A DNA stretch of 27,404 bases from Nanopusillaceae archaeon (GTDB taxonomy: Archaea; Nanobdellota; Nanobdellia; Nanobdellales; Nanobdellaceae), in the NCBI GenBank assembly GCA_038833255.1, contig JAWBIX010000002.1:1-27404 (forward strand), written 5' to 3'. The position numbers and the translations under genes were made by a program. Shown here one piece after another: positions 3,231 through 27,404 of this stretch (position 1 is the stretch's first letter; each line of letters opens with the position of its first letter). The notes beneath the pieces were generated by a model that worked only from the letters and a program-made list of their open reading frames with translations, ran no database searches and was not told the origin of the DNA.

Positions 3231-5222
3231 TTATCTTTGCTGTTTTCCAAAAGAGCCCAAATCTAAAGGAACATCAGAAAATCCTCCATACGTCATTGTT
3301 AAAGTTGGTAAATCTGCAATATAAACAGATGCATAATACGTAGGAAGAATAGGTAATTTATAAAATGTTTCTACATTGTAATCTTTAATTGGGAATGTAT
3401 ATGATATAAAATACGAGTATTCTGGTCCAAAATATTTAAAGAAATTACCAGAATACCATCCTCCAACTTCATGAACAACAGATATTCCTTTTTCAGCTAA
3501 TAAATCTTTTAATTCTTCTATTTCCATCTTTATAATTTCGTCTTTTTCCATTCCTAATGGAATATGAACATCTTCTCCATATTTACTTTCAGAAATATGA
3601 ATATGTCTTATATATGGTTTCATTTCGTTAATCCATCTTTTTATATCTTCTTTTTCATACCCATATTTTTCAAACAATTTTAAATGCGCTACATCTAAAG
3701 TTATTCCAATATATTTATCGACAAAATTTTCTAAATTTCCAAATTTTTCTACAATTTTGTTTTTTACTTCAGGATGTTTATCTAAAATTTCAAAAAGAGC
3801 TTTTCTAGCTTTTTCAACAAATTCCTTTAAAATTTCTGGTCTAGAAATTGCATCTTCTGGATAAACATGTTCAAAATATATTTTTGGAAATACTACATCT
3901 ATTGAATTCAATTTTTCTTTATCTTTTTTTATATCCTCTAAAAAGCGATCTAAACTTCTTTTGAAAGAATCAATAGCAGAATCTATTGCTACTGCAGGGA
4001 AAGGTTTTAAAATTGGATAACGCATATTTTCAAGTTCTTGCAAAGCAAAATTTAAAATTAAGTAAGTTTTTCCTTCTATTAAATTTAAAAAATCTTTATA
4101 GATATTAGAATTGTCAATTATCTCCCTAATTTTTTTCCTACTTTCTATTTCTCCGATTCCATATTCTTTTGATACATTTTGAATTTGTTCACTAATATTA
4201 TCTATCTTTTTTCTTAATTCACTTAAATAATTAAGAGCTAACGGTACATATTTTATTTCAACATTTTGTTCTTCTTTTTTATACAAATAACTAGAATACA
4301 TAAAACTCAAAGTTGAGTATAGATCGTCTATATACATCTTTAAATTATTTAAATATCCTAAAAAGAATCCTGTAGATAAATCTCTTTCAAAATATAAATT
4401 ATTCAGCTTTTTTATTTCTTTTCCCAGTTTATCAATCTTTTCTAAAACATCCCTTAAAATTTTATTAAAATATTCTTCATTATACTTATATAACCTGTCC
4501 ACAATTGTTTCTTCTATTTCCTTTTTAGCTATTTTCTCTTGCATTTCCATGAGCTTTTCAGATAGATGACGTCTATCATATAGATCCAAATACCCTGTTA
4601 TTATATATCCTTTAGGTAATTCTGTAACTGTTGGCATTGAAATTGAAAATACCCATGCTGGTAAGTCATTAGGATCCTTAATCTTATATAAATCTTCCTT
4701 TTTTAATAATCCTAAATAAACTAACTTATTTTTTAAATCATTAAATTTCTCAGGATTTTCTCTTAAAAATTCTTTCAATTTTTCTTCATATTTTTTATCC
4801 CAAGAAATTCCAGATATTGCTGAAGTGGCATGAATAACCACTTTTATACTATCTCCATAAATCCTTCCAAGATTGGCTGCTGTATCTAATATAGATTTTA
4901 ATTCATACGCAACCTTTTCTTTACCTAAATCGTCAATAATATATCCGCTTTCGCTAGTTCGCATTCCAGTTAATATTGGAAATATGTTCCCCTGACTAGA
5001 TATAAATGGCGCATGAATACTTAAATCTATTTTATTTACTCTTGCTTTTCTTGCAATTTCATCCCATATTTCTTTTGGAATTTGAGACCAATGTCTGAAT
5101 GTAGCTAGATTTATCTCTACTCCAGGATATCCTAATCTTATTTTATTTTCAAGTTCTTCCAACTGATTTACTATTTCTGGATTTGTTGATGTTGATTGTC
5201 TTCTTTTAAATACTTCTTCCAT
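3231..5222 (-). CDS. Xylose-isomerase-like / endonuclease IV-like metal-binding TIM-barrel protein with a roughly 300-aa helical insertion; function unknown
   Basis: A set of ligand-like motifs appears in the order and approximate spacing of AP-endonuclease family 2. These are LSIHAP (H70), VVIHA (H131), then a gap to about aa 440, then IYFEHV (E451), LDVAHL (D510/H513), IRHIHISE (H540/H542), EDVHIPLG (D551/H553) and VVHEVGG (E585). Residues about 140-440 are helical and coiled-coil-like (EKLMEMQEKIAKKEIEE..., ELRKKIDNISEQIQN...). Confidence 0.55.
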   Translation of the reverse strand: MEEVFKRRQSTSTNPEIVNQLEELENKIRLGYPGVEINLATFRHWSQIPKEIWDEIARKARVNKIDLSIHAPFISSQGNIFPILTGMRTSESGYIIDDLGKEKVAYELKSILDTAANLGRIYGDSIKVVIHATSAISGISWDKKYEEKLKEFLRENPEKFNDLKNKLVYLGLLKKEDLYKIKDPNDLPAWVFSISMPTVTELPKGYIITGYLDLYDRRHLSEKLMEMQEKIAKKEIEETIVDRLYKYNEEYFNKILRDVLEKIDKLGKEIKKLNNLYFERDLSTGFFLGYLNNLKMYIDDLYSTLSFMYSSYLYKKEEQNVEIKYVPLALNYLSELRKKIDNISEQIQNVSKEYGIGEIESRKKIREIIDNSNIYKDFLNLIEGKTYLILNFALQELENMRYPILKPFPAVAIDSAIDSFKRSLDRFLEDIKKDKEKLNSIDVVFPKIYFEHVYPEDAISRPEILKEFVEKARKALFEILDKHPEVKNKIVEKFGNLENFVDKYIGITLDVAHLKLFEKYGYEKEDIKRWINEMKPYIRHIHISESKYGEDVHIPLGMEKDEIIKMEIEELKDLLAEKGISVVHEVGGWYSGNFFKYFGPEYSYFISYTFPIKDYNVETFYKLPILPTYYASVYIADLPTLTMTYGGFSDVPLDLGSFGKQQR

Positions 5223-5223
5223 C

Positions 5224-6852
5224 TTAGTAGTTTAATAGTCCAAAAGTCTTCTTAAACGCATTATAGATTGTCCATCCCTTATCCTTTATCGACATCTTTA
5301 AATTTTCTTTTTCTATCTCTATTTTCTTTTTTACATTTGAATATTTCAAAGCAGATAAATCTTTTCCAAAGGAAACAATAAATTCGAATAATTTATAAAA
5401 TATATCTAAAAAATCTTTATATGCTGGAAATAACATAGAAACTGTACTTTCTTTAGTTTCCTTATTGTTCTTTTTTACTTCTTTATTTTTCTCTAATGGA
5501 AGATATTTCTTTATCCATTCTAATCCTCTTGTTATATTTTTATCAACCCTTTCTAAATTCTCAATAAACTCTCTAGTCCAAGTTATATCCTCTGGTTTCT
5601 TTATATCTGTCTTTTTAAAATATTTTTTTGTTTCCTCTAAAAGATCTTTATTTGAAATAATTTTATCAAATATATAATAATTACAAATAGCTGAAGCTAT
5701 TTGCTTTAAAAATTCTTCAGTTAGTCCTTCAATATATAAAAGGTCTTCAATTTCTTTAGAAGCAATTAGTTCATCGTATTCGCTTTTTTCTAATAAATAT
5801 GCCCTGTAAATAATATCTATTCTTCCAAAATATGTATAAATTGGAGATCTTTCTGGAGATATGGCTTGTAAAGTTGGTCTAGATCTTGACAAGATATTAA
5901 TTTCATAAACTGGTATATATTTTTTAGTAACTAATTCTTTTTTATTAAAATCCCATTCACTAATTTCTTTCTCTGCATCAGAAGCTAACAGATCGATTTC
6001 TATCATTACAGATTCTAGAGATTTTACCAAATCTGGATTATCATAGTTTTTTTGAATTAACATTTTTGCTGCTTTAAGATAAGGCTTTGCTATTTCAGTA
6101 TAATATACTAAAGAATTTATTTGATGAATTAAATATGCTTTTAGCATCCTTTCTCTTTCTCTTATATATTTTTCCGATTGCTCTAACCAATTATAAAATT
6201 CTGTTAATCTTGATTTTAGAATAGATATAACTCTTTCATTAACGATATTATTTTTTTCGTAATATGAAATATCTATAAAATTATTGTGAGATAATACACT
6301 TTTATTTACTATTTCTTTTTTAATAAGTTCTCTCAACTTCTCCTCATATTCAACAGCAATAAATAGATCTACTATTGTAGAATATCCAAGTCTTCCTCTA
6401 AGATTCATTAAGCTAGTAGCCCCTTTCTTAGAATCAACATTATCTAACCATATTGACTTTAAAGCTTTTAGGGCTACAAATGAAATTTCAGGATTATCAG
6501 ATTTTAATTCATCGTATCTAGCAATTCTTTCAGCAATAATAGTTCTATATTCATTGTCTATACTTATTATAGATTTTATTATTGTATTTATTAATCCTCC
6601 AAGTTTAGTTGCATTATCTAAAATAGTTATTTCTCTTCTGACAATATCAGTAAAAAAGGCGGAAGCAATAGAACCACCAAATTCGTCAGATATTTTTAGA
6701 ACATTTAATTTTAAATTATCTCTAAGAAAATCAAGTAACCAAAAGTAAATTTGTTCTAATCTATATCTTGGATTATCTATAACTATTTTAGCTTCAAATA
6801 ATTTGTGTTTTTCTCCTATTTTTTCTTGCCTTAATTCATCTAAGGATACCAT
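5224..6852 (-). CDS. Large alpha-helical hypothetical protein, coupled to the downstream TIM-barrel gene
   Basis: The track ORF is 5224..6951 (575 aa). I prefer the internal ATG at 6852 (MVSLDELRQEK...). The extra 33 codons would overlap the divergent gene that starts at 6921, and they read like reverse-complemented promoter DNA. The stop at 5224-5226 lies 1 nt from the next start at 5222. I saw no P-loop or other catalytic motif. Confidence 0.55.
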   Translation of the reverse strand: MVSLDELRQEKIGEKHKLFEAKIVIDNPRYRLEQIYFWLLDFLRDNLKLNVLKISDEFGGSIASAFFTDIVRREITILDNATKLGGLINTIIKSIISIDNEYRTIIAERIARYDELKSDNPEISFVALKALKSIWLDNVDSKKGATSLMNLRGRLGYSTIVDLFIAVEYEEKLRELIKKEIVNKSVLSHNNFIDISYYEKNNIVNERVISILKSRLTEFYNWLEQSEKYIRERERMLKAYLIHQINSLVYYTEIAKPYLKAAKMLIQKNYDNPDLVKSLESVMIEIDLLASDAEKEISEWDFNKKELVTKKYIPVYEINILSRSRPTLQAISPERSPIYTYFGRIDIIYRAYLLEKSEYDELIASKEIEDLLYIEGLTEEFLKQIASAICNYYIFDKIISNKDLLEETKKYFKKTDIKKPEDITWTREFIENLERVDKNITRGLEWIKKYLPLEKNKEVKKNNKETKESTVSMLFPAYKDFLDIFYKLFEFIVSFGKDLSALKYSNVKKKIEIEKENLKMSIKDKGWTIYNAFKKTFGLLNY

Positions 6853-6920
6853 TGATATAATTTTATGTTTATTCTGAAAGATAAAAAGATTATTTATTAT
6901 AAAAAGTAAAATATTACATA
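6853..6920. promoter_or_regulatory. Divergent promoter region with TATA-like boxes for both flanking genes
   Basis: tttattataaaaa is centred about 24 nt upstream of the ATG at 6921. On the other strand ctttttatctt is centred about 28 nt upstream of the ATG at 6852. Both are consistent with leaderless or short-leader archaeal transcripts. Confidence 0.35.
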
Positions 6921-7442
6921 ATGAGATATCATTTAATAATATTACCGACAAAAGGTTTTTCGGAAGAAGATCTTGTAAATTTTATTGAAATTATTAAGGG
7001 AAAAGTATATGTGGCTACACCTAATAAAAAAGTAGCTATTGGTAAGTATGGTTCGAAAATTTTTCCTGATTTTTCAATAAAAGAAATATTTTTACTTAAA
7101 GATACTTTTTTTGATGATTTAATAATTATATCTGATGATGGGTTTAAAGAATTACTTACGCCAGAAGTTTCTGCTATTTTTGCAAGATTTTTATATTCAA
7201 AAAAACCAGTTATCTTATCCTCCTTAGCACAAATAGGTATTGCAAAAATGGAGTTAATAAACGGAAGAATGATCACTTTTAATAACATAGATTTTCCAGA
7301 ATATATGAAAGTCGTAAGAAACTTAAAAGTAAACTTTATTGACTTACCTTGTTATATAGACGATAATTTAATAACAACTAAAGGAAGAGAGTTTGTTTTT
7401 GATTTAGAAGATTTTTTAATTGATTTAAGTTTAACAAAATAG
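6921..7442 (+). CDS. DJ-1/PfpI-superfamily (class I glutamine amidotransferase-like) protein lacking the nucleophile Cys
   Basis: 173 aa. It can be aligned by eye to PfpI-type proteins: LPTKGFSEEDL..., DDLIIISDDG, KKPVILSSLAQIGIAKMELINGRMITF and IDDNLITTKG. The canonical ...ICHG... nucleophile elbow is replaced by ...SSLA.... Confidence 0.55.
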   Translation: MRYHLIILPTKGFSEEDLVNFIEIIKGKVYVATPNKKVAIGKYGSKIFPDFSIKEIFLLKDTFFDDLIIISDDGFKELLTPEVSAIFARFLYSKKPVILSSLAQIGIAKMELINGRMITFNNIDFPEYMKVVRNLKVNFIDLPCYIDDNLITTKGREFVFDLEDFLIDLSLTK

Positions 7443-7613: not shown

Positions 7614-8756
7614 ATGAATATGAATGTAACTCCTTGGGAAGTAAATATAAAATCTGAAGAAGATTACGATAGGTTAATTAAAGAATTTGGTGTAAGTAAA
7701 ATAGATGAAAGTATAATAAAGAATTTAGAAAAAATAGCTGGAAATGTGCATATATTAATAAAAAGAAAATTTTTTTACGCACATAGAGATTTTGATAAAT
7801 TATTAAATTCTTACCTAAAAGGAGAAAGATTCTTTTTATATACTGGAAGAGCGCCTTCAAAAAGTAAAATGCATATAGGACATTTAATACCTTTTATTTT
7901 AACTAAATGGTTTCAAGAAAAATTTAACGCAAATGTTTATATTCAACTCCCAGATGAAGAAAAATATTGGGCTAAAAAAGCAGATAATTATGAAGAAATT
8001 TATAATTACGCTATAGAAGATGCAAAAACTATTGCCGCTCTTGGCTTTGATCCAGACAGAACTTTTATATTTATTAATTCTGTATATATTAAGCATCTTT
8101 ATAAACCTGCAATATATATTGCTAAAGAAATATCTTTAAACGAAGCAAAAAAAGTATTTGGATTCTCAGATTCTGCATCGGTTGGTTTACCTTTTTATAT
8201 TGCCCTACAAATTGCTCCTACATTTTTTGAAAAAAATATACCATTAATTCCCTGTGGAATTGACCAAGACCCTTATTTTAGATTACAAAGAGATATTGCT
8301 GAGAAATTTAATAGAAAAAAGGCAGTTACAATTTTATCAAAATTTGTTTGGGGTTTGCAAGGACCATATACAAAAATGTCCGCATCAAATCCAAAATCAG
8401 CAATATTTGTCGACGATGATTTTGAGACAATAAAACAGAAAATATATAAATATGCTTTCTCCGGTGGTGGGGCTACATTGGAGGAACATAGAAAATTTGG
8501 AGGAAAACCAGAAATAGATGTTTGTTTTTTCTGGTTGTCTATTTTCTTTGAAGAGAATGACAAAAAATTAAAAGAAATTGAAGAAAAATATAGAAGTGGT
8601 GAGCTGACAACTGGAGAATTGAAGGAATATACTGCAAATAAAATATGGAACTTTTTAAAGGAAATACAAAAAAACAGAAACAAAATAAATTTAGATAAAT
8701 ATATGTTTGATGGGAAGTTGGCTTCAGAAATGTGGAATTGGGAATTTAAAATATGA
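7614..8756 (+). CDS. trpS: Tryptophanyl-tRNA synthetase (archaeal/eukaryotic type)
   Basis: The N-terminal VTPWEV...DYDRLIKEFG is typical of TrpRS. It has the class I HIGH motif (KMHIGHLIPF) and a KMSKS-type motif (KMSAS). Confidence 0.85.
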   Translation: MNMNVTPWEVNIKSEEDYDRLIKEFGVSKIDESIIKNLEKIAGNVHILIKRKFFYAHRDFDKLLNSYLKGERFFLYTGRAPSKSKMHIGHLIPFILTKWFQEKFNANVYIQLPDEEKYWAKKADNYEEIYNYAIEDAKTIAALGFDPDRTFIFINSVYIKHLYKPAIYIAKEISLNEAKKVFGFSDSASVGLPFYIALQIAPTFFEKNIPLIPCGIDQDPYFRLQRDIAEKFNRKKAVTILSKFVWGLQGPYTKMSASNPKSAIFVDDDFETIKQKIYKYAFSGGGATLEEHRKFGGKPEIDVCFFWLSIFFEENDKKLKEIEEKYRSGELTTGELKEYTANKIWNFLKEIQKNRNKINLDKYMFDGKLASEMWNWEFKI

Positions 8757-9898
8757 AAATAAAAGAAAATCCTGAAGATTTTTACGTAAAAGAAATAATA
8801 GATCTAAAATCTAAAAATTTAGGAACAAAATATGCTTATTTCTTGATGTGGAAAAAAAATTTAAGTACCATTAGAGCGATAAAAATTGTTGCTAAGAATT
8901 TAAAAATATCAAAAAAAAGAATATTTTTTGCCGGGGAAAAAGATAAAAAAACTATATCTGAACAATACATTGCAATAGAAAATTTAAAAGAATTTAAAGA
9001 TAGATATGATTTTGGAAATGTAAAACTAAGATATATTGGAAGTTTTGATAACCCTATAAGAATATCAGATATCGTTGAAAATTACTTTTCTATAAAAATA
9101 AGAGATGTAGAAGAAAAAGAGTTTGAAATATTTAAAGAAAATTTAAAAATATTCAAAGATTTATTTTTTAATTATTTTGATGAACAGAGATTTGGAAGTA
9201 TTAGATATATAAATCATCTTGTTGGAAAAGAAATAATAAATAGAAATTGGGAGGAAGCAATAAAAATAATCCTAACATTTTATTCTGATAAAGAGAACGA
9301 AAAAGCAAAATTTGCTAGAAAATGGCTAAAAGAAAATTGGGGAAAATTTAAAGAAGCAATAAAATATTACCCTAAATGGTTAGATATAGAACTGAGTATA
9401 TTAAATTCTTTAATAAAAAATGGAAATTATCGTAAAGCATTTAAGAGCATTCACAAAAGATTGTTAAAATTATTCTTACATTCCTACCAATCTTATATAT
9501 GGAATCTTATTTTATCTAAATACATAGAGGAAAAATCTAAAAATATAGCGAAAATCAAAATTGCCGAAGATTATTTTTACATATCAAAAGACAAGGAAAC
9601 TATAGAAAAATTAAAAAATAAATCATTAGATTTAATAGGATATAATTTAAAAGAATATGAAATAGATAGTGAATTTAGAGAAATCTATATAAATATATTA
9701 AAAAATGAAAATATTAATCTTAAAGATCTTTATTTCGAAAACAAACCATCTCTTGCCTTAAAAAGTATTAAAAGAGAAGTATTATCAAATGTAAGAGATT
9801 TAAAATATGATATAAAAGATAATTCTATAATATTAAATTTTTACTTAAAAAAAGGAAGTTATGCTACAATATTTATAAAGCATTTATTTACCAAATAA
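8753..9898 (+). CDS. truD: tRNA pseudouridine synthase TruD/Pus7 family
   Basis: It has the N-terminal PEDFYVKEI and the NYFDEQRFG motif (the TruD catalytic Asp region). It shares an ATGA overlap with trpS. Confidence 0.8.
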   Translation: MKIKENPEDFYVKEIIDLKSKNLGTKYAYFLMWKKNLSTIRAIKIVAKNLKISKKRIFFAGEKDKKTISEQYIAIENLKEFKDRYDFGNVKLRYIGSFDNPIRISDIVENYFSIKIRDVEEKEFEIFKENLKIFKDLFFNYFDEQRFGSIRYINHLVGKEIINRNWEEAIKIILTFYSDKENEKAKFARKWLKENWGKFKEAIKYYPKWLDIELSILNSLIKNGNYRKAFKSIHKRLLKLFLHSYQSYIWNLILSKYIEEKSKNIAKIKIAEDYFYISKDKETIEKLKNKSLDLIGYNLKEYEIDSEFREIYINILKNENINLKDLYFENKPSLALKSIKREVLSNVRDLKYDIKDNSIILNFYLKKGSYATIFIKHLFTK

Positions 9899-10942
9899 TA
9901 AAACAAAATTTAATATTAGTGCTGCTAAAATTAAATAACTAACTAAAATATGTAATTTTGAAGCTTTCTTATCGTCTTTAATTAGAATATTTAATAATGC
10001 TTTAAGTGCTTGTCCACCATCTAATGTAAATATCGGTAAAGAATTTCCTAAACCAATACCCAAACTTATTATAAATATCCAAAACAATATATTAAATACC
10101 ATTCCAAATTTTACTTCCTGAGCAAAATATAATCCTATAAATGGCTTTCCATCCCTTTCAGATAATTCTATTATATATTTTCCTTTATCAGTAATTAATT
10201 CAATTTTATCACCTGGAGAATAATTACTTAACGCTTCTACTATGTCTTTGTACTCTCTAATTTCTTTATTACCAATAAATAAAACTCTTTCATTTGTCTC
10301 AAAAGAAAGATTTTCAACGTTGGTAACATTCGGAACTTTCCCCACAATATAAACATACGATTCTGAGCTAAGAATATTAGAACTATATAAAATATATATC
10401 AAAAGGGCAACAAATAAAGACAAAAGAATGTTTGCTAATATTCCAGCATTAAAAATAGATATTTGTTTAATTTTATTTAATTTAAATATATCTTCAGATG
10501 GTTCAACAAAGGCTCCAAGAAATGGCCCAAAAAAGAAAATTCCAAAGGATTTTATTTCTATTTTATTTTTTATAATTAATAAAGCATGGGCTAATTCATG
10601 AACTAGAGCTGAAATAAATATTGCTAATATTACTTCAAAAATTGGAAACTTTATTCCATATATTTCTAAACCAGGAATAACCGGAACCACCGTTGGTATT
10701 CTTGCTTTTATACCATAAAAAATAAAGTAAATTGCAACTATCATTGAAATAAACCCTATAGGAATAGCTGCGTATTCAAAAATTTTTATTAATTTAGATT
10801 TACTAATTTTTTCCAGAAAATCTAGTCTATTTCCAATTTTATAAAGACCATATATGTACTTATATTCTACATTTTTCCCAATTTTTTTTAAAAATTGAAA
10901 AAGAGCAGAAAGAAAAAATATATATAATAGTAAAAAATACAT
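9884..10942 (-). CDS. Site-2 protease family (M50) membrane metalloprotease with a PDZ-like insert
   Basis: It has HExxH in a transmembrane segment (VHELAHAL), the C-terminal NSLPIFTLDGG (the NxxPxxxLDG motif) and multiple hydrophobic helices. Confidence 0.8.
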   Translation of the reverse strand: MYFLLLYIFFLSALFQFLKKIGKNVEYKYIYGLYKIGNRLDFLEKISKSKLIKIFEYAAIPIGFISMIVAIYFIFYGIKARIPTVVPVIPGLEIYGIKFPIFEVILAIFISALVHELAHALLIIKNKIEIKSFGIFFFGPFLGAFVEPSEDIFKLNKIKQISIFNAGILANILLSLFVALLIYILYSSNILSSESYVYIVGKVPNVTNVENLSFETNERVLFIGNKEIREYKDIVEALSNYSPGDKIELITDKGKYIIELSERDGKPFIGLYFAQEVKFGMVFNILFWIFIISLGIGLGNSLPIFTLDGGQALKALLNILIKDDKKASKLHILVSYLILAALILNFVLLFGK

Positions 10943-10948
10943 CTTTAA

Positions 10949-11140
10949 CTATTTCGACCCTATTAATACAATTTCTGATCTTTTAGGTCTTAAATCCTTA
11001 GATTTACATTTTCTACATTTTACTTTTCCTAATTTTACTTTAACTGGATCTGCACGTATTCTAGATTTACATTTTCTACATATAAATATTCTTTCAAACT
11101 TTCTTAATTTAACTTCAGGTAATAATCCTGTACTACCCAT
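10949..11140 (-). CDS. rpl40e: Ribosomal protein eL40 (L40e)
   Basis: 63 aa. The pattern ICRKC...(N)...CRKCKSKDLRPKR is the zinc ribbon plus LRPK tail typical of L40e. Confidence 0.7.
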   Translation of the reverse strand: MGSTGLLPEVKLRKFERIFICRKCKSRIRADPVKVKLGKVKCRKCKSKDLRPKRSEIVLIGSK

Positions 11141-16931: not shown

Positions 16932-17321
16932 ATGAAGCGAACAAATATTTTCAGTTTATTACGAATAAGAAAGAAAATAAAAAGAAAAAAACCAGAATAT
17001 TTGAGAGTATATTGGTATAAAAAGATCAGATTAAAAAATAGAAAAGACTCTTGGAGAAGACCAAAGGGAATACATAATAAGATAAGAAAGAAAATAAAAG
17101 GAAAACCAGAAATGGTAGAAGTAGGATATGGCTCTCCAAGGGAAGTTAAAGGATTATTAAGAAACGGAAAAAGGCCTGTTTTAGTTCATAATATAGAAGA
17201 ATTAGAAAAAATTGACAAAGAAAAAGAAATAGCTGTAATTGCTTCAACAGTAGGAAGGAGAAAAAGAGAACAAATAATAAAGAGGGCTAAAGAATTAAAT
17301 ATAGAAATCTACAATCCTTAA
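16932..17321 (+). CDS. rpl32e: Ribosomal protein eL32 (L32e)
   Basis: The sequence ...WRRPKGIHNKIRKKIKGKPEMVEVGYGSPREVKG...PVLVHNIEELEKI matches L32e. It follows L6 in the conserved order. Confidence 0.85.
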   Translation: MKRTNIFSLLRIRKKIKRKKPEYLRVYWYKKIRLKNRKDSWRRPKGIHNKIRKKIKGKPEMVEVGYGSPREVKGLLRNGKRPVLVHNIEELEKIDKEKEIAVIASTVGRRKREQIIKRAKELNIEIYNP

Positions 17322-17845
17322 TAGTAGCCTTTAAAATAATTAATAATCCATTCTTTTATTTTTTCGCATATTATATACAGATCTCTAGCAGATCTTCCCT
17401 TAATTCCGGTTCCTGCTATTCTTGCCTTTTCATATTCTTTTTTTAAAAAATGAGGGGTGATACCAAAATATGATAAAAGTATTTCTAAGAAAGATTTTGC
17501 TTCTGGTTCCTTTATATCTTCAATTTCATGAGAGGAAAAAATTTCTATTTCTATTTCTCCAGTTTGTGTTGAGATATTATAGTTATTTATCTTTATAGTT
17601 ATTTTCATTTCCCAATTTATTTTAGGTTCTTCTTTCCAATATTCTTTTCTCATTTCCCAAATACTTTCTACGAATAATAGGCCTTCTGGAGATAATTTAT
17701 AATATTGGTAAGTTTCGTAATAATCTTTACCTAATTTTCCTTGCCATCCGTAATTTTCAATTTGTTTTTTTAAAGATTGATAAAAATCCTGAGGTGAAAA
17801 CTTAGATCTAAATTTTACAGAGGATTTATATATATCTTCTTTCAT
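17318..17845 (-). CDS. Hypothetical alpha/beta protein, diverged paralog of the gene immediately upstream
   Basis: 175 aa. It shares with the 17842..18333 product a pattern of F-x-S..(D)[FL]Y[KQ]SLK..E..G[YW]...E...W...[FI][EN]W[TE][IM][SK]I...E[IL][EL][IL]..., followed by a long C-terminal helix. It shares an ATGA overlap with that gene. Confidence 0.5.
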   Translation of the reverse strand: MKEDIYKSSVKFRSKFSPQDFYQSLKKQIENYGWQGKLGKDYYETYQYYKLSPEGLLFVESIWEMRKEYWKEEPKINWEMKITIKINNYNISTQTGEIEIEIFSSHEIEDIKEPEAKSFLEILLSYFGITPHFLKKEYEKARIAGTGIKGRSARDLYIICEKIKEWIINYFKGYY

Positions 17846-18333
17846 GTTTTATAAGATCCTGTTAGTGTTTTTAATAAATCTAAGAAATTATTTGCAATAG
17901 AACTTATATTTTTCTTATGAGTCCTTATTTCATCTCCTACTAAATATCTTTCAAAAAGAGCTCTTAAAAATATTCCAAATGGTTTATCTCCAAAATATTT
18001 ATCATAATCTAACTCTAAATCACCATTTATTTTTAAAAGTAAATTCTCTGCATATTCATGTGTTATGCCTTCTTTTTTTATTAATCTTAATTTTTCTATT
18101 GAAATAGTCCACTCAAAAATATATTTTGCGTAATCTGTTACTTTTTTTTCACAATACCATTCATATTTAATACTTTTAGTTCCATCCTCAAATATCCTTT
18201 CCTCATGCTTTTTTTCTATAAAATCGTATCCTTTTTCTTCCCAAAAATTTTTTAATGATTTATATAAATCTACAAAGTTTATTATCCCAGAATATGAAAA
18301 TGTAAGACCATCGACTACTCTTTCTTTTGGCAT
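17842..18333 (-). CDS. Hypothetical alpha/beta protein, diverged paralog of the gene immediately downstream
   Basis: 163 aa. See the paralog entry for the shared pattern. It lies 35 nt downstream of the primase gene on the same strand. Confidence 0.5.
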   Translation of the reverse strand: MPKERVVDGLTFSYSGIINFVDLYKSLKNFWEEKGYDFIEKKHEERIFEDGTKSIKYEWYCEKKVTDYAKYIFEWTISIEKLRLIKKEGITHEYAENLLLKINGDLELDYDKYFGDKPFGIFLRALFERYLVGDEIRTHKKNISSIANNFLDLLKTLTGSYKT

Positions 18334-25033: not shown

Positions 25034-25090
25034 TATTTAATTTTTAAAATAAAATTAAAGATTTAAATTAAAATAAAAAATACTATTTTT

Positions 25091-25564
25091 ATGAAAAAAA
25101 GCATAAGTCTTTTTATAGAATTTTTAATATATGTTTCTTTTTCTCTCCTTGCTCTTTCATATGTGCTTTATTATAGTTATTACGTAACTGAAAGAGAAAA
25201 AACAAAATTGGAGATTGAAAATATAATTAGTTTACTTAACGAATATCATGCAATTTTAAGCATTTATAGAAATTGCGGGATATGTAGCTTTACTTTTAAA
25301 AAACAACTACCTTTAGGCTCTAAAATTATTTTCTTAAATGATTCAAATATAATATATGCTACTTACACTTCAAGAACTCAATATAATACAGAATCTGCTC
25401 ATATAAACATAAGTATAGAAAAAAGAGGTTCTTTATTTTATTATAATATTTCAAAAAACACTTATAATTATATTATTTTAAATAACCAAGAATTAAATTT
25501 TACTAGAGAGCTATGTATAAAAACAAACATAATTTTTAATCAAATTTTTATAGAAAATTGCTAA
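25091..25564 (+). CDS. Small secreted or membrane-anchored protein with a type IV pilin-like (class III signal peptide-like) N-terminus
   Basis: The N-terminus is MKKS/ISLFIEFLIYVSFSLLALSYVLYY. It has a short basic leader, a small residue, and a hydrophobic helix with Glu about 6 residues after the putative cleavage site. It contains 4 Cys and several N-x-S/T sequons. Confidence 0.5.
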   Translation: MKKSISLFIEFLIYVSFSLLALSYVLYYSYYVTEREKTKLEIENIISLLNEYHAILSIYRNCGICSFTFKKQLPLGSKIIFLNDSNIIYATYTSRTQYNTESAHINISIEKRGSLFYYNISKNTYNYIILNNQELNFTRELCIKTNIIFNQIFIENC

Positions 25565-26007
25565 ACACATATTAAGTTTATATAAAAATTATTTTCTTTA
25601 GAAATGTTATAACATATGCAAATCATATTCATTTCCTTAAATAAAAAAGAGATGTTACAATATTTTAAATTTTCAAAATATGTAGGTGTTCTTATTACAT
25701 AACAGCAGTTTTCCTCTTGATTGGAACATTCATTTATTGAATTATCATAAAATTTTTCTGAAACAATACAAATATATTTCATTTCTAATTGATTAGAAAT
25801 TAAGTAATCTCTATAAACCTGAACAAAATCTAAAATTTTAGATTTATCAAAATTTTTAGAAATATAAAAAATTTCATTTTCAAAATTTTTCACATATTCA
25901 AAGAGGTTGCTTTTTATATCAATATTTGTTTTTAAAACACTCAAAATATAATATGATAGTATCGAAACTATAATTATTGTTGATATAAGAATATATTGTG
26001 ACTTCAT
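25561..26007 (-). CDS. Small Cys-rich protein with a pilin-like N-terminal hydrophobic helix
   Basis: The N-terminus is MKS/QYILISTIIIVSILSYYILSVL. About 10 Cys occur in the 148-aa ORF product (ECSNQEENCCYV, KYCNIS, MICICYN, LICV). It shares an ATGA overlap with the upstream gene. Confidence 0.5.
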   Translation of the reverse strand: MKSQYILISTIIIVSILSYYILSVLKTNIDIKSNLFEYVKNFENEIFYISKNFDKSKILDFVQVYRDYLISNQLEMKYICIVSEKFYDNSINECSNQEENCCYVIRTPTYFENLKYCNISFLFKEMNMICICYNISKENNFYINLICV

Positions 26008-26333
26008 TTGTATAAAATTAAAATAAATGGATCGTACTGTTTATAACCAGAAAATAAATACTTTCCATAGAATGTATAGTTCTTAGTATCTTCCAAATCT
26101 CCTAAATTTCCTTTTAAACATACTATATATGTACCTGAAGAAATATTATATATTACATAAATCTTTTCTGGATAACAATCTTCAACGAAATTTCTAAAAT
26201 TTTCAATATTCAATTTAAAACTAATATTTTCTATATTTTCTCTATTTCTAACATAATTAATAAAAACCAGATATGCCGTAGTTAATATAATTATAGAAAC
26301 TATTGTTTCAAATAAAACAATCCATCCTCTCAT
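26004..26333 (-). CDS. Small protein with a type IV pilin-like N-terminus
   Basis: The N-terminus MRG/WIVLFETIVSIIILTTAYLVFINY closely resembles the bacterial and archaeal prepilin pattern (basic leader, Gly, hydrophobic helix with an early Glu). It has ATGA overlaps on both sides. Confidence 0.55.
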   Translation of the reverse strand: MRGWIVLFETIVSIIILTTAYLVFINYVRNRENIENISFKLNIENFRNFVEDCYPEKIYVIYNISSGTYIVCLKGNLGDLEDTKNYTFYGKYLFSGYKQYDPFILILYK

Positions 26334-27404
26334 TTTATGTAAATTATTAAATAATCTTCTATTAGCTTATTGTTATATTTAATATAAACATTATATCCTT
26401 TAGAGTATGGTTTATTTACTTTATTTCCAACAGAAATATTTAAATTTTTCAAATAAAAAGATGTTTTATCGTCTTCTTCTAAATCTTTTATATCTATATA
26501 ATATACTTTATTAATGTATTTTAGCTCGTACATGGGCATAGAATAACCGTAATATACATCAATAGCTAGATTGTCCATTGTTTGATTAATACAAAAATAA
26601 TGTATTCTCGGTCTTAAGAAATTTTGATCACTTAATATGATTACATTTGCTATTCTACTTCCGTAACTTCTGTAAAAAGTAATATTGTAAATATCATCAA
26701 AAAACAATAAAACGTATTTACAATAAGAATTACTCAATTTTCGAAGCATTATTTTATTTGTGAATATGTTTTTATTTTTGAAGTTTTCAAAGTTTGTAAA
26801 ATTAAAGTACTCATCTGGAGTAAAACTAGAAAATCTAAGAGACCAGTTGAATAAATTAAAGTGCTGATTTAAATTAGAAATATTATATTCTGCTATTTCA
26901 AAAAACCAGGAACTATTTGAAAATAAAATTCTATAAACGTTAAAGATATCATTATTAAATTCCTTATAGTATTGTATACATGCTATTCCAACATTTTTTA
27001 TATTTGGATTGGATAGAAAAGTTTCTCTATAAAGAGATAACCTGTAATATACCTCTATTAAAATCTTGTTTTGAAAGTCATAATATATTTTAGAATTATT
27101 CATAAAATAATTTGAACACCTTAAATCCATATAGTCTTGAAAATCATAATATATATTTTCAGATACTAAAAATTCCATATCTAAATAACATTTTGGCTCA
27201 AAAATTATTTTATATTGAAAATAATCTAAATTTTGAATATTAAAGGCTTCTGCATTTCCATTAATACCTTTTGAAACATTAAAAATTGCTTTTTCTGATG
27301 TAAGATAATCTATTTTTATTATTATACCATAAGATTTTCCAGTATTAGATTCTAAACATGTTCCATTTTCCGATAAATAACAATAACTAAATTCTGCCTC
27401 TACA
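26330..27404 (-). CDS. Large Asn/Tyr/Phe-rich, Cys-containing, sequon-rich hypothetical protein (probably extracellular); N-terminus lies beyond the window
   Basis: The track reports 26330..27178 from the first ATG. My translation of the same frame upstream (…VEAEFSYCYLSENGTCLESNTGKSYGIIIKIDYLTSEKAIFNVSKG…EPKCYLDMEFLV…) shows no stop up to position 27404, so the gene is 5'-truncated by the window. It has at least 10 N-x-S/T sequons. Confidence 0.55.
   Translation of the reverse strand, partial: VEAEFSYCYLSENGTCLESNTGKSYGIIIKIDYLTSEKAIFNVSKGINGNAEAFNIQNLDYFQYKIIFEPKCYLDMEFLVSENIYYDFQDYMDLRCSNYFMNNSKIYYDFQNKILIEVYYRLSLYRETFLSNPNIKNVGIACIQYYKEFNNDIFNVYRILFSNSSWFFEIAEYNISNLNQHFNLFNWSLRFSSFTPDEYFNFTNFENFKNKNIFTNKIMLRKLSNSYCKYVLLFFDDIYNITFYRSYGSRIANVIILSDQNFLRPRIHYFCINQTMDNLAIDVYYGYSMPMYELKYINKVYYIDIKDLEEDDKTSFYLKNLNISVGNKVNKPYSKGYNVYIKYNNKLIEDYLIIYIK

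Follow-up and report, generated by a model that had tools for sequence, protein, structure and literature searches.

A conserved nanoarchaeal gene cluster for a DUF2341 adhesin-like protein and three small pilin-like proteins, candidate substrates of type IV filament machinery

The DNA analysed here, called the window below, is a whole contig of 27,404 bp (JAWBIX010000002.1) from a metagenome-assembled genome (MAG) of a tiny hot-spring symbiont of the Nanopusillaceae (DPANN, Nanoarchaeota), with a guanine-plus-cytosine (GC) content of ∼25%. Four genes lie at its right end in the order large → 109 → 148 ← 157, where the numbers are the lengths of the products in amino acids (aa). The best explanation that we found, and in our judgement a probable one, is that the cluster encodes an adhesin-like pilin with a DUF2341 domain and three accessory pilin-like proteins, all of which a type IV filament machine, with its genes elsewhere in the genome, would take as substrates. 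We infer processing, incorporation into a filament and host binding, because no pilin model or structure was matched, no prepilin peptidase was seen in the loci read and some of the leaders are non-canonical. In NCBI MAGs all four genes are annotated as "hypothetical protein" only. The features are listed below.

25091..25564, + strand: gene for the 157-aa pilin-like protein, convergent on the chain (from the list of open reading frames, ORFs)
25561..26007, − strand: gene for the 148-aa Cys-rich pilin-like protein (ORF list)
26004..26333, − strand: gene for the 109-aa minor-pilin-like protein (ORF list)
26330..27404, − strand: 3' two-thirds (357 codons) of the large gene (DUF2341, adhesin-like glycoprotein); frame open to the window end
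27281..27403, − strand: C-terminal half of a predicted divergent DUF2341 (PF10102) beta-sandwich, residues ∼178–218 of 534 (profile comparison)
26244..26333, − strand: N-terminus of the 109-aa protein, resembling a class III signal (leader MRG, then a hydrophobic helix that includes Glu9) (read from the sequence)
25091..25180, + strand: N-terminus of the 157-aa protein, resembling a class III signal (leader MKKS, then a hydrophobic helix that includes Glu10) (read from the sequence)
25918..26007, − strand: leader MKS plus hydrophobic helix of the 148-aa protein (read from the sequence)

Results

Layout of the cluster and recovery of the complete large gene

An earlier note on this DNA had described three small ORFs of 157, 148 and 109 aa, each with a basic leader and a hydrophobic helix, chained tightly to one another and to the large gene. 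All three ORFs are present, and the junctions are as described. ATGA start/stop overlaps join the 109-aa and 148-aa genes (26004–26007) and the large and 109-aa genes (26330–26333), and the 157-aa and 148-aa genes overlap convergently by 4 nt (25561–25564). The large gene lacks its 5' end in the window because the window is an entire contig, the end of which cuts the gene. We recovered the missing part from L002, a longer and nearly identical contig with 4 mismatches to the window over 2,314 nt. The complete protein, encoded at L002 8400–10004, has 534 aa and starts with MVRGIFKKIEGIISLVVFILFLIFYF, so that it too carries a short basic leader and an N-terminal hydrophobic helix.

The 57-nt spacer 5' of the 157-aa gene (25034–25090) is nearly all A/T and contains TTTAAAT at 25062–25068, ∼26 nt 5' of the ATG. 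This string would fit an archaeal TATA box for a leaderless mRNA; strings of the TTTAAAT type are frequent anyway at the base composition of this spacer.

All four genes are under purifying selection

The cluster region has the lowest GC content in the window (19–22%), and its ORFs match no database family. Both properties would suit small ORFs that are merely chance open frames in very AT-rich, non-coding DNA. We rejected this reading, to which we give practically no credence, on the basis of substitution rates and conservation. Pairwise comparison between orthologues yielded ratios of non-synonymous to synonymous substitution (dN/dS) of 0.12–0.38 for all four genes at dS values of 0.5–1.2 (large gene, 0.21–0.37; 148-aa gene, 0.26–0.38; 157-aa gene, 0.12–0.38); the neighbouring genes for a DUF87 ATPase and ribosomal protein S19e gave 0.07 and 0.13, respectively. 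At least six lineages keep the length, order, Cys pattern and start/stop overlaps, with identity between orthologues falling to ∼30% across lineages that have the same gene order. Order, lengths and overlaps are retained in L002, L004, L005 and L006, in the Nanopusillus-type contigs L008 and L009, and also in Nanobdella aerobiophila (L010/L087), a cultivated species with a complete genome. The cluster was also found in MAGs labelled Nanopusillus acidilobi. These results indicated that all four are real genes under purifying selection.

The annotation of one MAG gives the 157-aa gene a product of 133 aa (P0178; L003 2036–2437, compared with L002 10770–11243). The 5'-most 200 nt compared, comprising the upstream sequence and the first 47 codons of the 157-aa gene, are identical in L003 and L002; P0178 is short because the gene caller picked a downstream GTG, which removed the leader and the hydrophobic helix. 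Start miscalls of this kind would conceal a pilin-like N-terminus from automated screens.

The N-termini resemble class III signal peptides

All four proteins begin with a basic leader of 3–4 residues (M-x0-2-[KR]-[G/S]), followed by ∼20 hydrophobic residues in one N-terminal helix, and a hydrophobicity scan identified exactly one hydrophobic segment in each small protein, at residues ∼3–25. With the putative cleavage site marked by ↓, the N-termini of the window lineage read MVRG↓IFKKIE-GIISLVVFILFLIFYF for the large protein, MRG↓WIVLFE-TIVSIIILTTAYLVF for the 109-aa protein (WIVLFETIVSIIILTTAYLVF after the leader), MKKS↓ISLFIE-FLIYVSFSLLAL for the 157-aa protein (ISLFIEFLIYVSF after the leader) and MKS↓QYILISTIIIVSIL for the 148-aa protein. 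The large, 109-aa and 157-aa families share an invariant Glu at +6 after the [KR][G/S] site, and Met1 and the basic residue are also invariant in them; this bears out the statement of the earlier note that two small ORFs, the 157-aa and the 109-aa ones, have a Glu about six residues after the putative cleavage site. The 148-aa protein has Gln at +1, and its family is without the Glu. Across six orthologues of the 109-aa protein, M1, R2, W4 and E9 are invariant and a C-terminal strand, DP[FY]ILI, is conserved; in the 157-aa family E10 is invariant. The Nanobdella and Nanopusillus members of the latter family read M[KR]G↓[IV]SLW[IV]EFLIY, with the canonical Gly before the putative cleavage site. 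A Gly ends the leader ahead of the hydrophobic stretch in MRG↓W.. of the 109-aa protein and in the large protein, which can be read as MVRG↓.. or as ..KKIEG↓IISLVV; the second reading, with cleavage after the nearly invariant Gly11, would be equally possible.

Conservation is concentrated in this part of the proteins. Between the window lineage and Nanobdella/L008, the first 28–30 residues of the 109-aa, 157-aa and large families are 43–60% identical, and the remainder 20–31%. With distant orthologues, the 109-aa family gave 43–46% identity over the first 28 aa and 23–26% over the remainder, and the 157-aa family 57–60% over the first 30 aa and 20–22% over the remainder. An N-terminus conserved above the remainder is the usual pilin pattern.

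The motif [KR][GAS]-x5-E followed by a hydrophobic stretch is rare. Among the 86 ORFs of the window, only those of 157 and 109 aa carry it. In 82 nanoarchaeotal loci around homologues of the DUF87 ATPase (L002, L004, L006–L086), it was found only in orthologues of the genes described here and in two other proteins, one in L004 beside T2SSE and one a Woesearchaeal pilin-like ORF (L073). The Woesearchaeal locus (L073 4295–5357) has two pilin-like ORFs 0.9–2 kb downstream of a DUF87 ATPase, MKRGVNKRAVTNVEMVVAIVIF.. and ..KRG↓WVAIIEMSMAIVILF. The second has a G↓W-x4-E layout like that of the 109-aa protein, and this N-terminal style therefore reaches beyond the Nanopusillaceae.

The earlier note had also stated that none of the proteins resembles archaellins, and neither Arch_flagellin (PF01917) nor the NCBIfam ArlF/ArlG models matched any of the four. 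An accessory role in the archaellum was rejected, as Pfam and NCBIfam gave no ArlB/F/G signal in the four proteins.

The large protein belongs to a narrow family with a divergent DUF2341 domain

Pfam and NCBIfam searches with the four window-lineage proteins gave no significant match, and a search with the four families concatenated scored for relatives of the large protein only. We built an alignment of the large-protein family (A3, 23 sequences) and searched its profile against 1.84 billion representatives. Only 15 proteins were found, and the family is therefore narrow. Among them were two genuine DUF2341 proteins, P0157 (E 2.6e-7) and P0159 (E 2.2e-4), which matched over the same profile region. 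Alignment of A3 with a small DUF2341 alignment by hhalign gave a probability of 93.5% and an E-value of 2.4e-7 for residues 143–218, with 0.1% for the reversed control. One family member, P0148 (E 1.9e-78 to A3), passes the Pfam gathering score for DUF2341 (24.5 versus 23.4 bits). In the window lineage (the L002 protein, P0001 and the A3 members other than P0148), the Pfam DUF2341 model gave no match at E ≤ 1; its DUF2341 domain is therefore divergent. An AlphaFold model made with the 23 sequences was confident only at residues ∼131–250 (predicted local distance difference test, pLDDT, ≥70), where it shows a beta domain; this region includes DUF2341. By these profile comparisons, the large protein carries a divergent DUF2341 domain.

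In the ∼700-aa versions of the large protein from Nanopusillus and Nanobdella, DUF2341 is followed by an additional segment, which starts with DG..IF.FYD.F. The same motif follows DUF2341 in P0157 and P0159, and the 534-aa version of the window lineage lacks the segment. Further along, P0157 has a weak, sub-threshold match to ConA-like lectins (E 0.0086).

DUF2341 has been tied to the PilY-like tip adhesins of archaeal type IV pili (T4P; Makarova et al., 2016, PMC4858521), and DUF2341 proteins with class III signal peptides have been modelled as pilus-tip adhesins (PMC4858521; bioRxiv 10.64898/2026.04.22.720090). The DUF2341 gene of the epd pilus locus of M. maripaludis received repeated transposon insertions in a screen for transformation defects (PMC10133366).

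A second pilin/adhesin-like pair was observed outside the window, ∼1–2.7 kb upstream of the DUF87 ATPase gene that precedes the large gene (L002 4412–6252, − strand; L004 6009–7852). It consists of a 152-aa protein, MKG↓IATVISYVLLFIV.., with weak ArlF/ArlG/archaellin-like matches, and a 461-aa protein in which DUF2341 is clear (E 1.2e-19). At the equivalent position, Nanobdella and L008 have no such pair.

The proteins have the composition of extracellular glycoproteins

We compared the four proteins with the other 31 proteins of the window. Cys makes up 1.8–5.4% of the four (0.56% in the others) and Asn 9–12% (5.5%), and N-x-S/T sequons number 1.4–2.8 per 100 aa (0.38). The fragment of the large protein in the window has 12.3% Asn, 7 Cys and 10 sequons, which confirms the Asn-rich, Cys-containing protein with at least 10 sequons of the earlier note. 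That note had cautioned that AT-rich codon bias inflates the Asn and sequon counts. The caution can largely be lifted: the other window proteins are low in both, and the full large protein has 15 sequons, compared with 6.4±2.2 after shuffling of its own composition, so that the richness is not merely a genome-wide AT bias. The Cys residues are even in number and invariant in position (2 in the 109-aa protein, 8 in the 148-aa protein, 4 in the 157-aa protein and 10 in the large protein), with a CxxC and two further conserved Cys in the 157-aa family. Such Cys are consistent with disulfides, in agreement with the stabilising bonds proposed earlier, and the richness in Cys, Asn and sequons would fit secreted, disulfide-bonded, glycosylated proteins.

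The orthologous block abuts type IV filament genes in a related lineage

Nanoarchaeota have been reported to possess two T4P systems and an archaellum (PMC6142677), and Makarova et al. (2016; PMC4858521) were unable to assign pilins to one of the nanoarchaeal T4P ATPase clades. A connection between the cluster and filament machinery was found in L089/L090, a nanoarchaeotal lineage of 30% GC whose DUF87 ATPase is 65% identical to that of the window lineage. The order there is DUF87 ATPase → 541-aa large homologue → 92-aa → 130-aa ← T2SSF (284 aa) ← T2SSF (496 aa), followed by a divergent T2SSE (509 aa) →. The 92-aa protein (s92) is the orthologue of the 109-aa protein (family hidden Markov model, 1e-27; C-terminal ...P.LILI). 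The 130-aa protein (s130, MKSQLMIIATAAIIF..) is the orthologue of the 148-aa protein, with the same MKSQ.. start and Cys pattern (7e-30).

Proteins encoded beside T2SSE in related genomes have similar leaders. L004 comes from a genome closely related to that of the window, and its T2SSE lies ∼9 kb from the cluster; there, a 171-aa Cys-rich protein (MKS↓INLYLEYI..) and a 56-aa protein (MKA↓TISLE..) precede T2SSE and T2SSF (L004 1–1173). The metagenomic contig L100 (26% GC; 8171–11127) has the order 169-aa protein (MRF↓QSLFLEYI..) → 96-aa protein (MRG↓QLLLE..) → T2SSE → T2SSF. T2SSE-linked relatives thus have the Glu at +5, and the 56–96-aa protein shows a canonical xxxLE motif; leaders of three residues ending in G/A with Glu at +5/+6 are therefore the house style of T2SSE-linked proteins in this family. 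Both the 169–171-aa and the 56–96-aa proteins are candidate major or minor pilins of the T2SSE/T2SSF machine. L100 was the only informative result of a metagenome scan with the L089 T2SSE, which mostly recovered other archaeal lineages with ordinary Pilin_N-type pilins; a scan with the N-terminus of the L004 T2SSE recovered no relatives.

Filament subunits or membrane anchors

Alternatively, the four proteins could be ordinary signal-anchor (type II) membrane glycoproteins that form a surface or pseudo-periplasmic complex and are never extracted into a filament. The DUF2341 subunit would then still be a lectin or adhesin, held at the membrane or the S-layer like the class III-signal sugar-binding proteins of Sulfolobus. 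We consider this reading unlikely, though it is the main rival. The findings in this and the next paragraph weigh against filament incorporation, and those on the hydrophobic segment, the leaders, the models, the peptidase and the gene location favour anchors at the same time. Apart from one hydrophobic segment at the N-terminus, none of the proteins has anything diagnostic. In the window lineage, the putative cleavage site is preceded by a non-canonical Ser or Asn in the 157-aa (KKS/KKN) and 148-aa (KS/RN) proteins, and by Ser in two of the three small proteins of the window itself. The 109-aa protein is atypical in having Trp at +1 and Glu at +6 instead of +5. Its L089 orthologue s92 (L089 9621–9899) begins MLQVLE (MLQVLEAAIAIMLLL) and is without a basic leader; in-frame stops just upstream exclude an alternative start, and its pilin-like N-terminus would need no leader cleavage.

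Pfam searches with the full proteins and the isolated N-termini found no pilin N-terminal model at E ≤ 10, whether Pilin_N (PF07790), Class_IIIsignal (PF04021), N_methyl (PF07963) or any other. Sequence and profile searches of the PDB with the 109-aa and 157-aa families found nothing, and hhalign among the 109-aa, 148-aa, 157-aa, large and T2SSE-linked 171-aa families revealed no paralogy beyond the N-terminal helix. The AlphaFold model of the large protein is poor outside residues ∼131–250 (overall pLDDT 45.9; helix at residues 2–58), and Foldseek comparison of it with the PDB gave no match below E 0.01. For the 109-aa protein, a single-sequence AlphaFold model (mean pLDDT 44.9) showed a helix at residues 2–30, a further helix, a hairpin and additional elements at low confidence. 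For this protein, structure prediction, which had been proposed as a check for a pilin fold, returned the N-terminal helix in a model too poor for a fold search. T2SSE and T2SSF are neither within the window nor near the cluster in Nanobdella, and the cluster of the window genome is not beside them, the T2SSE of L004 being ∼9 kb off. An A24 prepilin peptidase, recognized by a GxGD motif and multiple hydrophobic segments, was not seen in the Nanopusillaceae loci that were read, which cover too little of the genomes for absence to be concluded; the Woesearchaeales loci L027 and L061 did contain A24-like ORFs. Makarova et al. likewise did not find a prepilin peptidase in two nanoarchaea (PMC4858521). 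On the side of the filament reading, Sulfolobus PibD is able to cleave engineered leaders down to 3–4 residues (PMC4187195).

Other properties are hard to reconcile with plain anchors. An invariant Glu early in the hydrophobic helix of three unrelated families would be unexpected, and the N-terminus is better conserved than the ectodomain. The orthologous block abuts T2SSF/T2SSE in L089, the leader style is common to proteins of T2SSE operons, and DUF2341 proteins recur in archaeal T4P loci. The Sulfolobus bindosome, in which class III-type surface glycoproteins need no classical pilus, is the model for an anchored complex, but the proteins described here have no substrate-binding domain and no ABC transporter genes accompany them; the NCBIfam BasA model reached only E 0.47, on the upstream 461-aa protein.

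We therefore retained, in part, the proposal of the earlier note that the cluster recalls operons of minor pilins and a tip adhesin. The DUF2341 domain, the adjacency to T2SSF/T2SSE in L089, the shared leader style and the pattern of Cys and sequons support it; the lack of a match to a pilin model or structure does not. Of the genes that the proposal calls for, T2SSE and T2SSF were located beside the orthologous block in L089/L090, and the A24 peptidase was not seen in the small part of the Nanopusillaceae genomes covered by the loci read.

A DUF87 ATPase gene precedes the large gene

Directly upstream of the large gene, beyond the right end of the window, lies a gene for a DUF87 (HerA/FtsK-superfamily) ATPase of 424–436 aa.

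L002 7117–8427; L004 8718–10019; L087 10001–11299; L089 6741–8015: DUF87 ATPase gene

One may suppose that the ATPase, the DUF2341 protein and the small pilin-like proteins work as one unit, whose task would be not simple adhesion but, for example, the import of DNA or other macromolecules from the host. Several observations suit this idea. In every lineage with the large gene (L002, L004, L006, L008–L011, L087 and L089), its start and the stop of the ATPase gene share 4–28 nt. The block stays together while most flanking genes vary by lineage, save the downstream 157-aa and ribosomal S19e genes in the Nanopusillaceae and Nanobdella; in L089 the downstream neighbours differ too. L011 retains the pair of ATPase and large genes only. 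In M. maripaludis, DNA uptake needs type IV pili, and the epd DUF2341 gene was found in that screen (PMC10133366). Nevertheless, we think a single unit quite improbable. The ATPase family is conserved phylum-wide, with >4,000 matches at ∼45–50% identity (Woesearchaeales), and evolves like a housekeeping gene, as its dN/dS indicates. Its neighbours are unrelated in 72 of the 82 loci, the commonest being a DnaG-like protein and an HtpX-like peptidase. The genomes are so compact that overlaps between unrelated genes are routine, and the block has no channel or DNA-binding component.

The ATPase scores far too low to be a true orthologue of HerA (26 bits, cut-off 970); VirB4 models did not match, TraB/TrwB matches were insignificant, and only DUF87/HerA-type models matched, the HerA-type ones weakly. 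The Ced/Ted DNA import systems, which pair a HerA/VirB4-like ATPase with a conjugative-type pilus, likewise place an FtsK/HerA-superfamily ATPase beside small membrane or surface proteins, but the small proteins here have one N-terminal helix and not a VirB2-like hairpin, and a VirB6-like polytopic protein is lacking. The unrelated neighbours in 72 of 82 loci also led us to reject the ATPase as a phylum-wide marker of a dedicated pilin system. Its link to the large gene is probably mere adjacency in very compact genomes.

Around the ATPase gene, a DnaG-like protein of ∼427 aa is encoded upstream in 24 of the 82 loci, and an HtpX-like M48/M56 membrane peptidase (∼287 aa) neighbours it in 23, in various orientations. 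These neighbours may hint at the real partners of the ATPase.

A related possibility, which we regard as improbable, is that in the Nanopusillaceae, Nanobdella and L089 the pilin-like adhesin set has been fused at the operon level with the HerA/FtsK ATPase. With leaders of 0–3 residues, in organisms from which no class III signal peptidase has come to light, such an apparatus would be independent of a peptidase or coupled to the translocating ATPase, for instance to import DNA or other host macromolecules. If this were true, it would be more than an ordinary adhesive pilus.

Other conserved genes in the window

Two further gene pairs of the window were recorded. At 17318–18333 (− strand), adjacent genes encode conserved proteins of 175 and 163 aa with no Pfam family on record; the pair sits between the primase and ribosomal L32e genes in L002, L003 and L004 and does not occur in Nanobdella. 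At 3231–6951 (− strand), two large adjacent proteins are encoded, both beside secY: one of 663 aa, with only a weak C-terminal match to a xylose-isomerase-like TIM-barrel (E 7e-8), and one of 575 aa (TTG start), with no family match.

Discussion

Our preferred reading, that the four proteins are substrates of a type IV filament machine, can be set beside several known systems. One is the Epd pilus locus of M. maripaludis, where several small, EppA-processed minor pilins with class III-type N-termini and a large DUF2341 protein are likewise encoded together. Gln at +1 occurs there, as in the 148-aa protein, and the DUF2341 gene is functional in pilus-dependent processes (PMC4858521; PMC10133366). 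The two loci differ in that the small proteins described here are not similar to Epd pilins or to the DUF361/Class_IIIsignal model, their leader has only 3–4 residues with Glu at +6, and their locus in this genome is without a dedicated peptidase, ATPase or platform gene. The minimal layout of subsystem 4A (two T2SSF, T2SSE, small pilin-like genes and a PilY-like adhesin; bioRxiv 10.64898/2026.04.22.720090) is matched by L089. This likeness rests on gene layout, the 4A-specific pilin families being arCOG11238 and arCOG06117. The window lineage differs from 4A in that its pilin/adhesin genes lie apart from those of the machine and are joined instead to the DUF87 ATPase gene.

The minor-pilin tip complexes of bacteria offer a parallel in organization. 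In FimU-PilVWXE with PilY1 of type IVa pili and in GspH-I-J-K of the type II secretion system, the genes for a large subunit and roughly three small ones follow one another, as here, and in both cases the set would present the adhesin. One member of the bacterial complexes is without the conserved Glu; in the type II secretion system this is GspK, and here it is the 148-aa protein. No sequence homology was detected between the bacterial and the nanoarchaeal proteins, and in the bacterial proteins the Glu stands at +5 following G↓F. PilY1 is no pilin, whereas the DUF2341 protein described here bears a pilin-like N-terminus.

On the filament reading, the proteins may act as follows. The N-terminal helix would insert each protein into the membrane, and a PibD-like class III signal peptidase would possibly trim the leader of 3–4 residues. 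A T2SSE/T2SSF machine encoded elsewhere in the genome would pull the proteins out of the membrane. Their N-terminal helices would then assemble into a priming or tip complex, which would present the glycosylated DUF2341 subunit at the end of the pilus. The pilus may serve adhesion, for which the host cell of this obligate ectosymbiont is a plausible target; such a role in host attachment is pure conjecture.

Population data suggest that the interface of nanoarchaea with their hosts is likely to consist of pilus components and of "hypothetical cell surface proteins" that evolve fast (PMC6142677). Modules that join minor pilins to a DUF2341 adhesin have been described in other archaea; the cluster described here combines a recognisable adhesin domain with three new pilin-like families. 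It thus provides concrete, testable candidates for nanoarchaeal pilins and host adhesins, and the same genes are kept by Nanobdella aerobiophila, which is in culture with its host.

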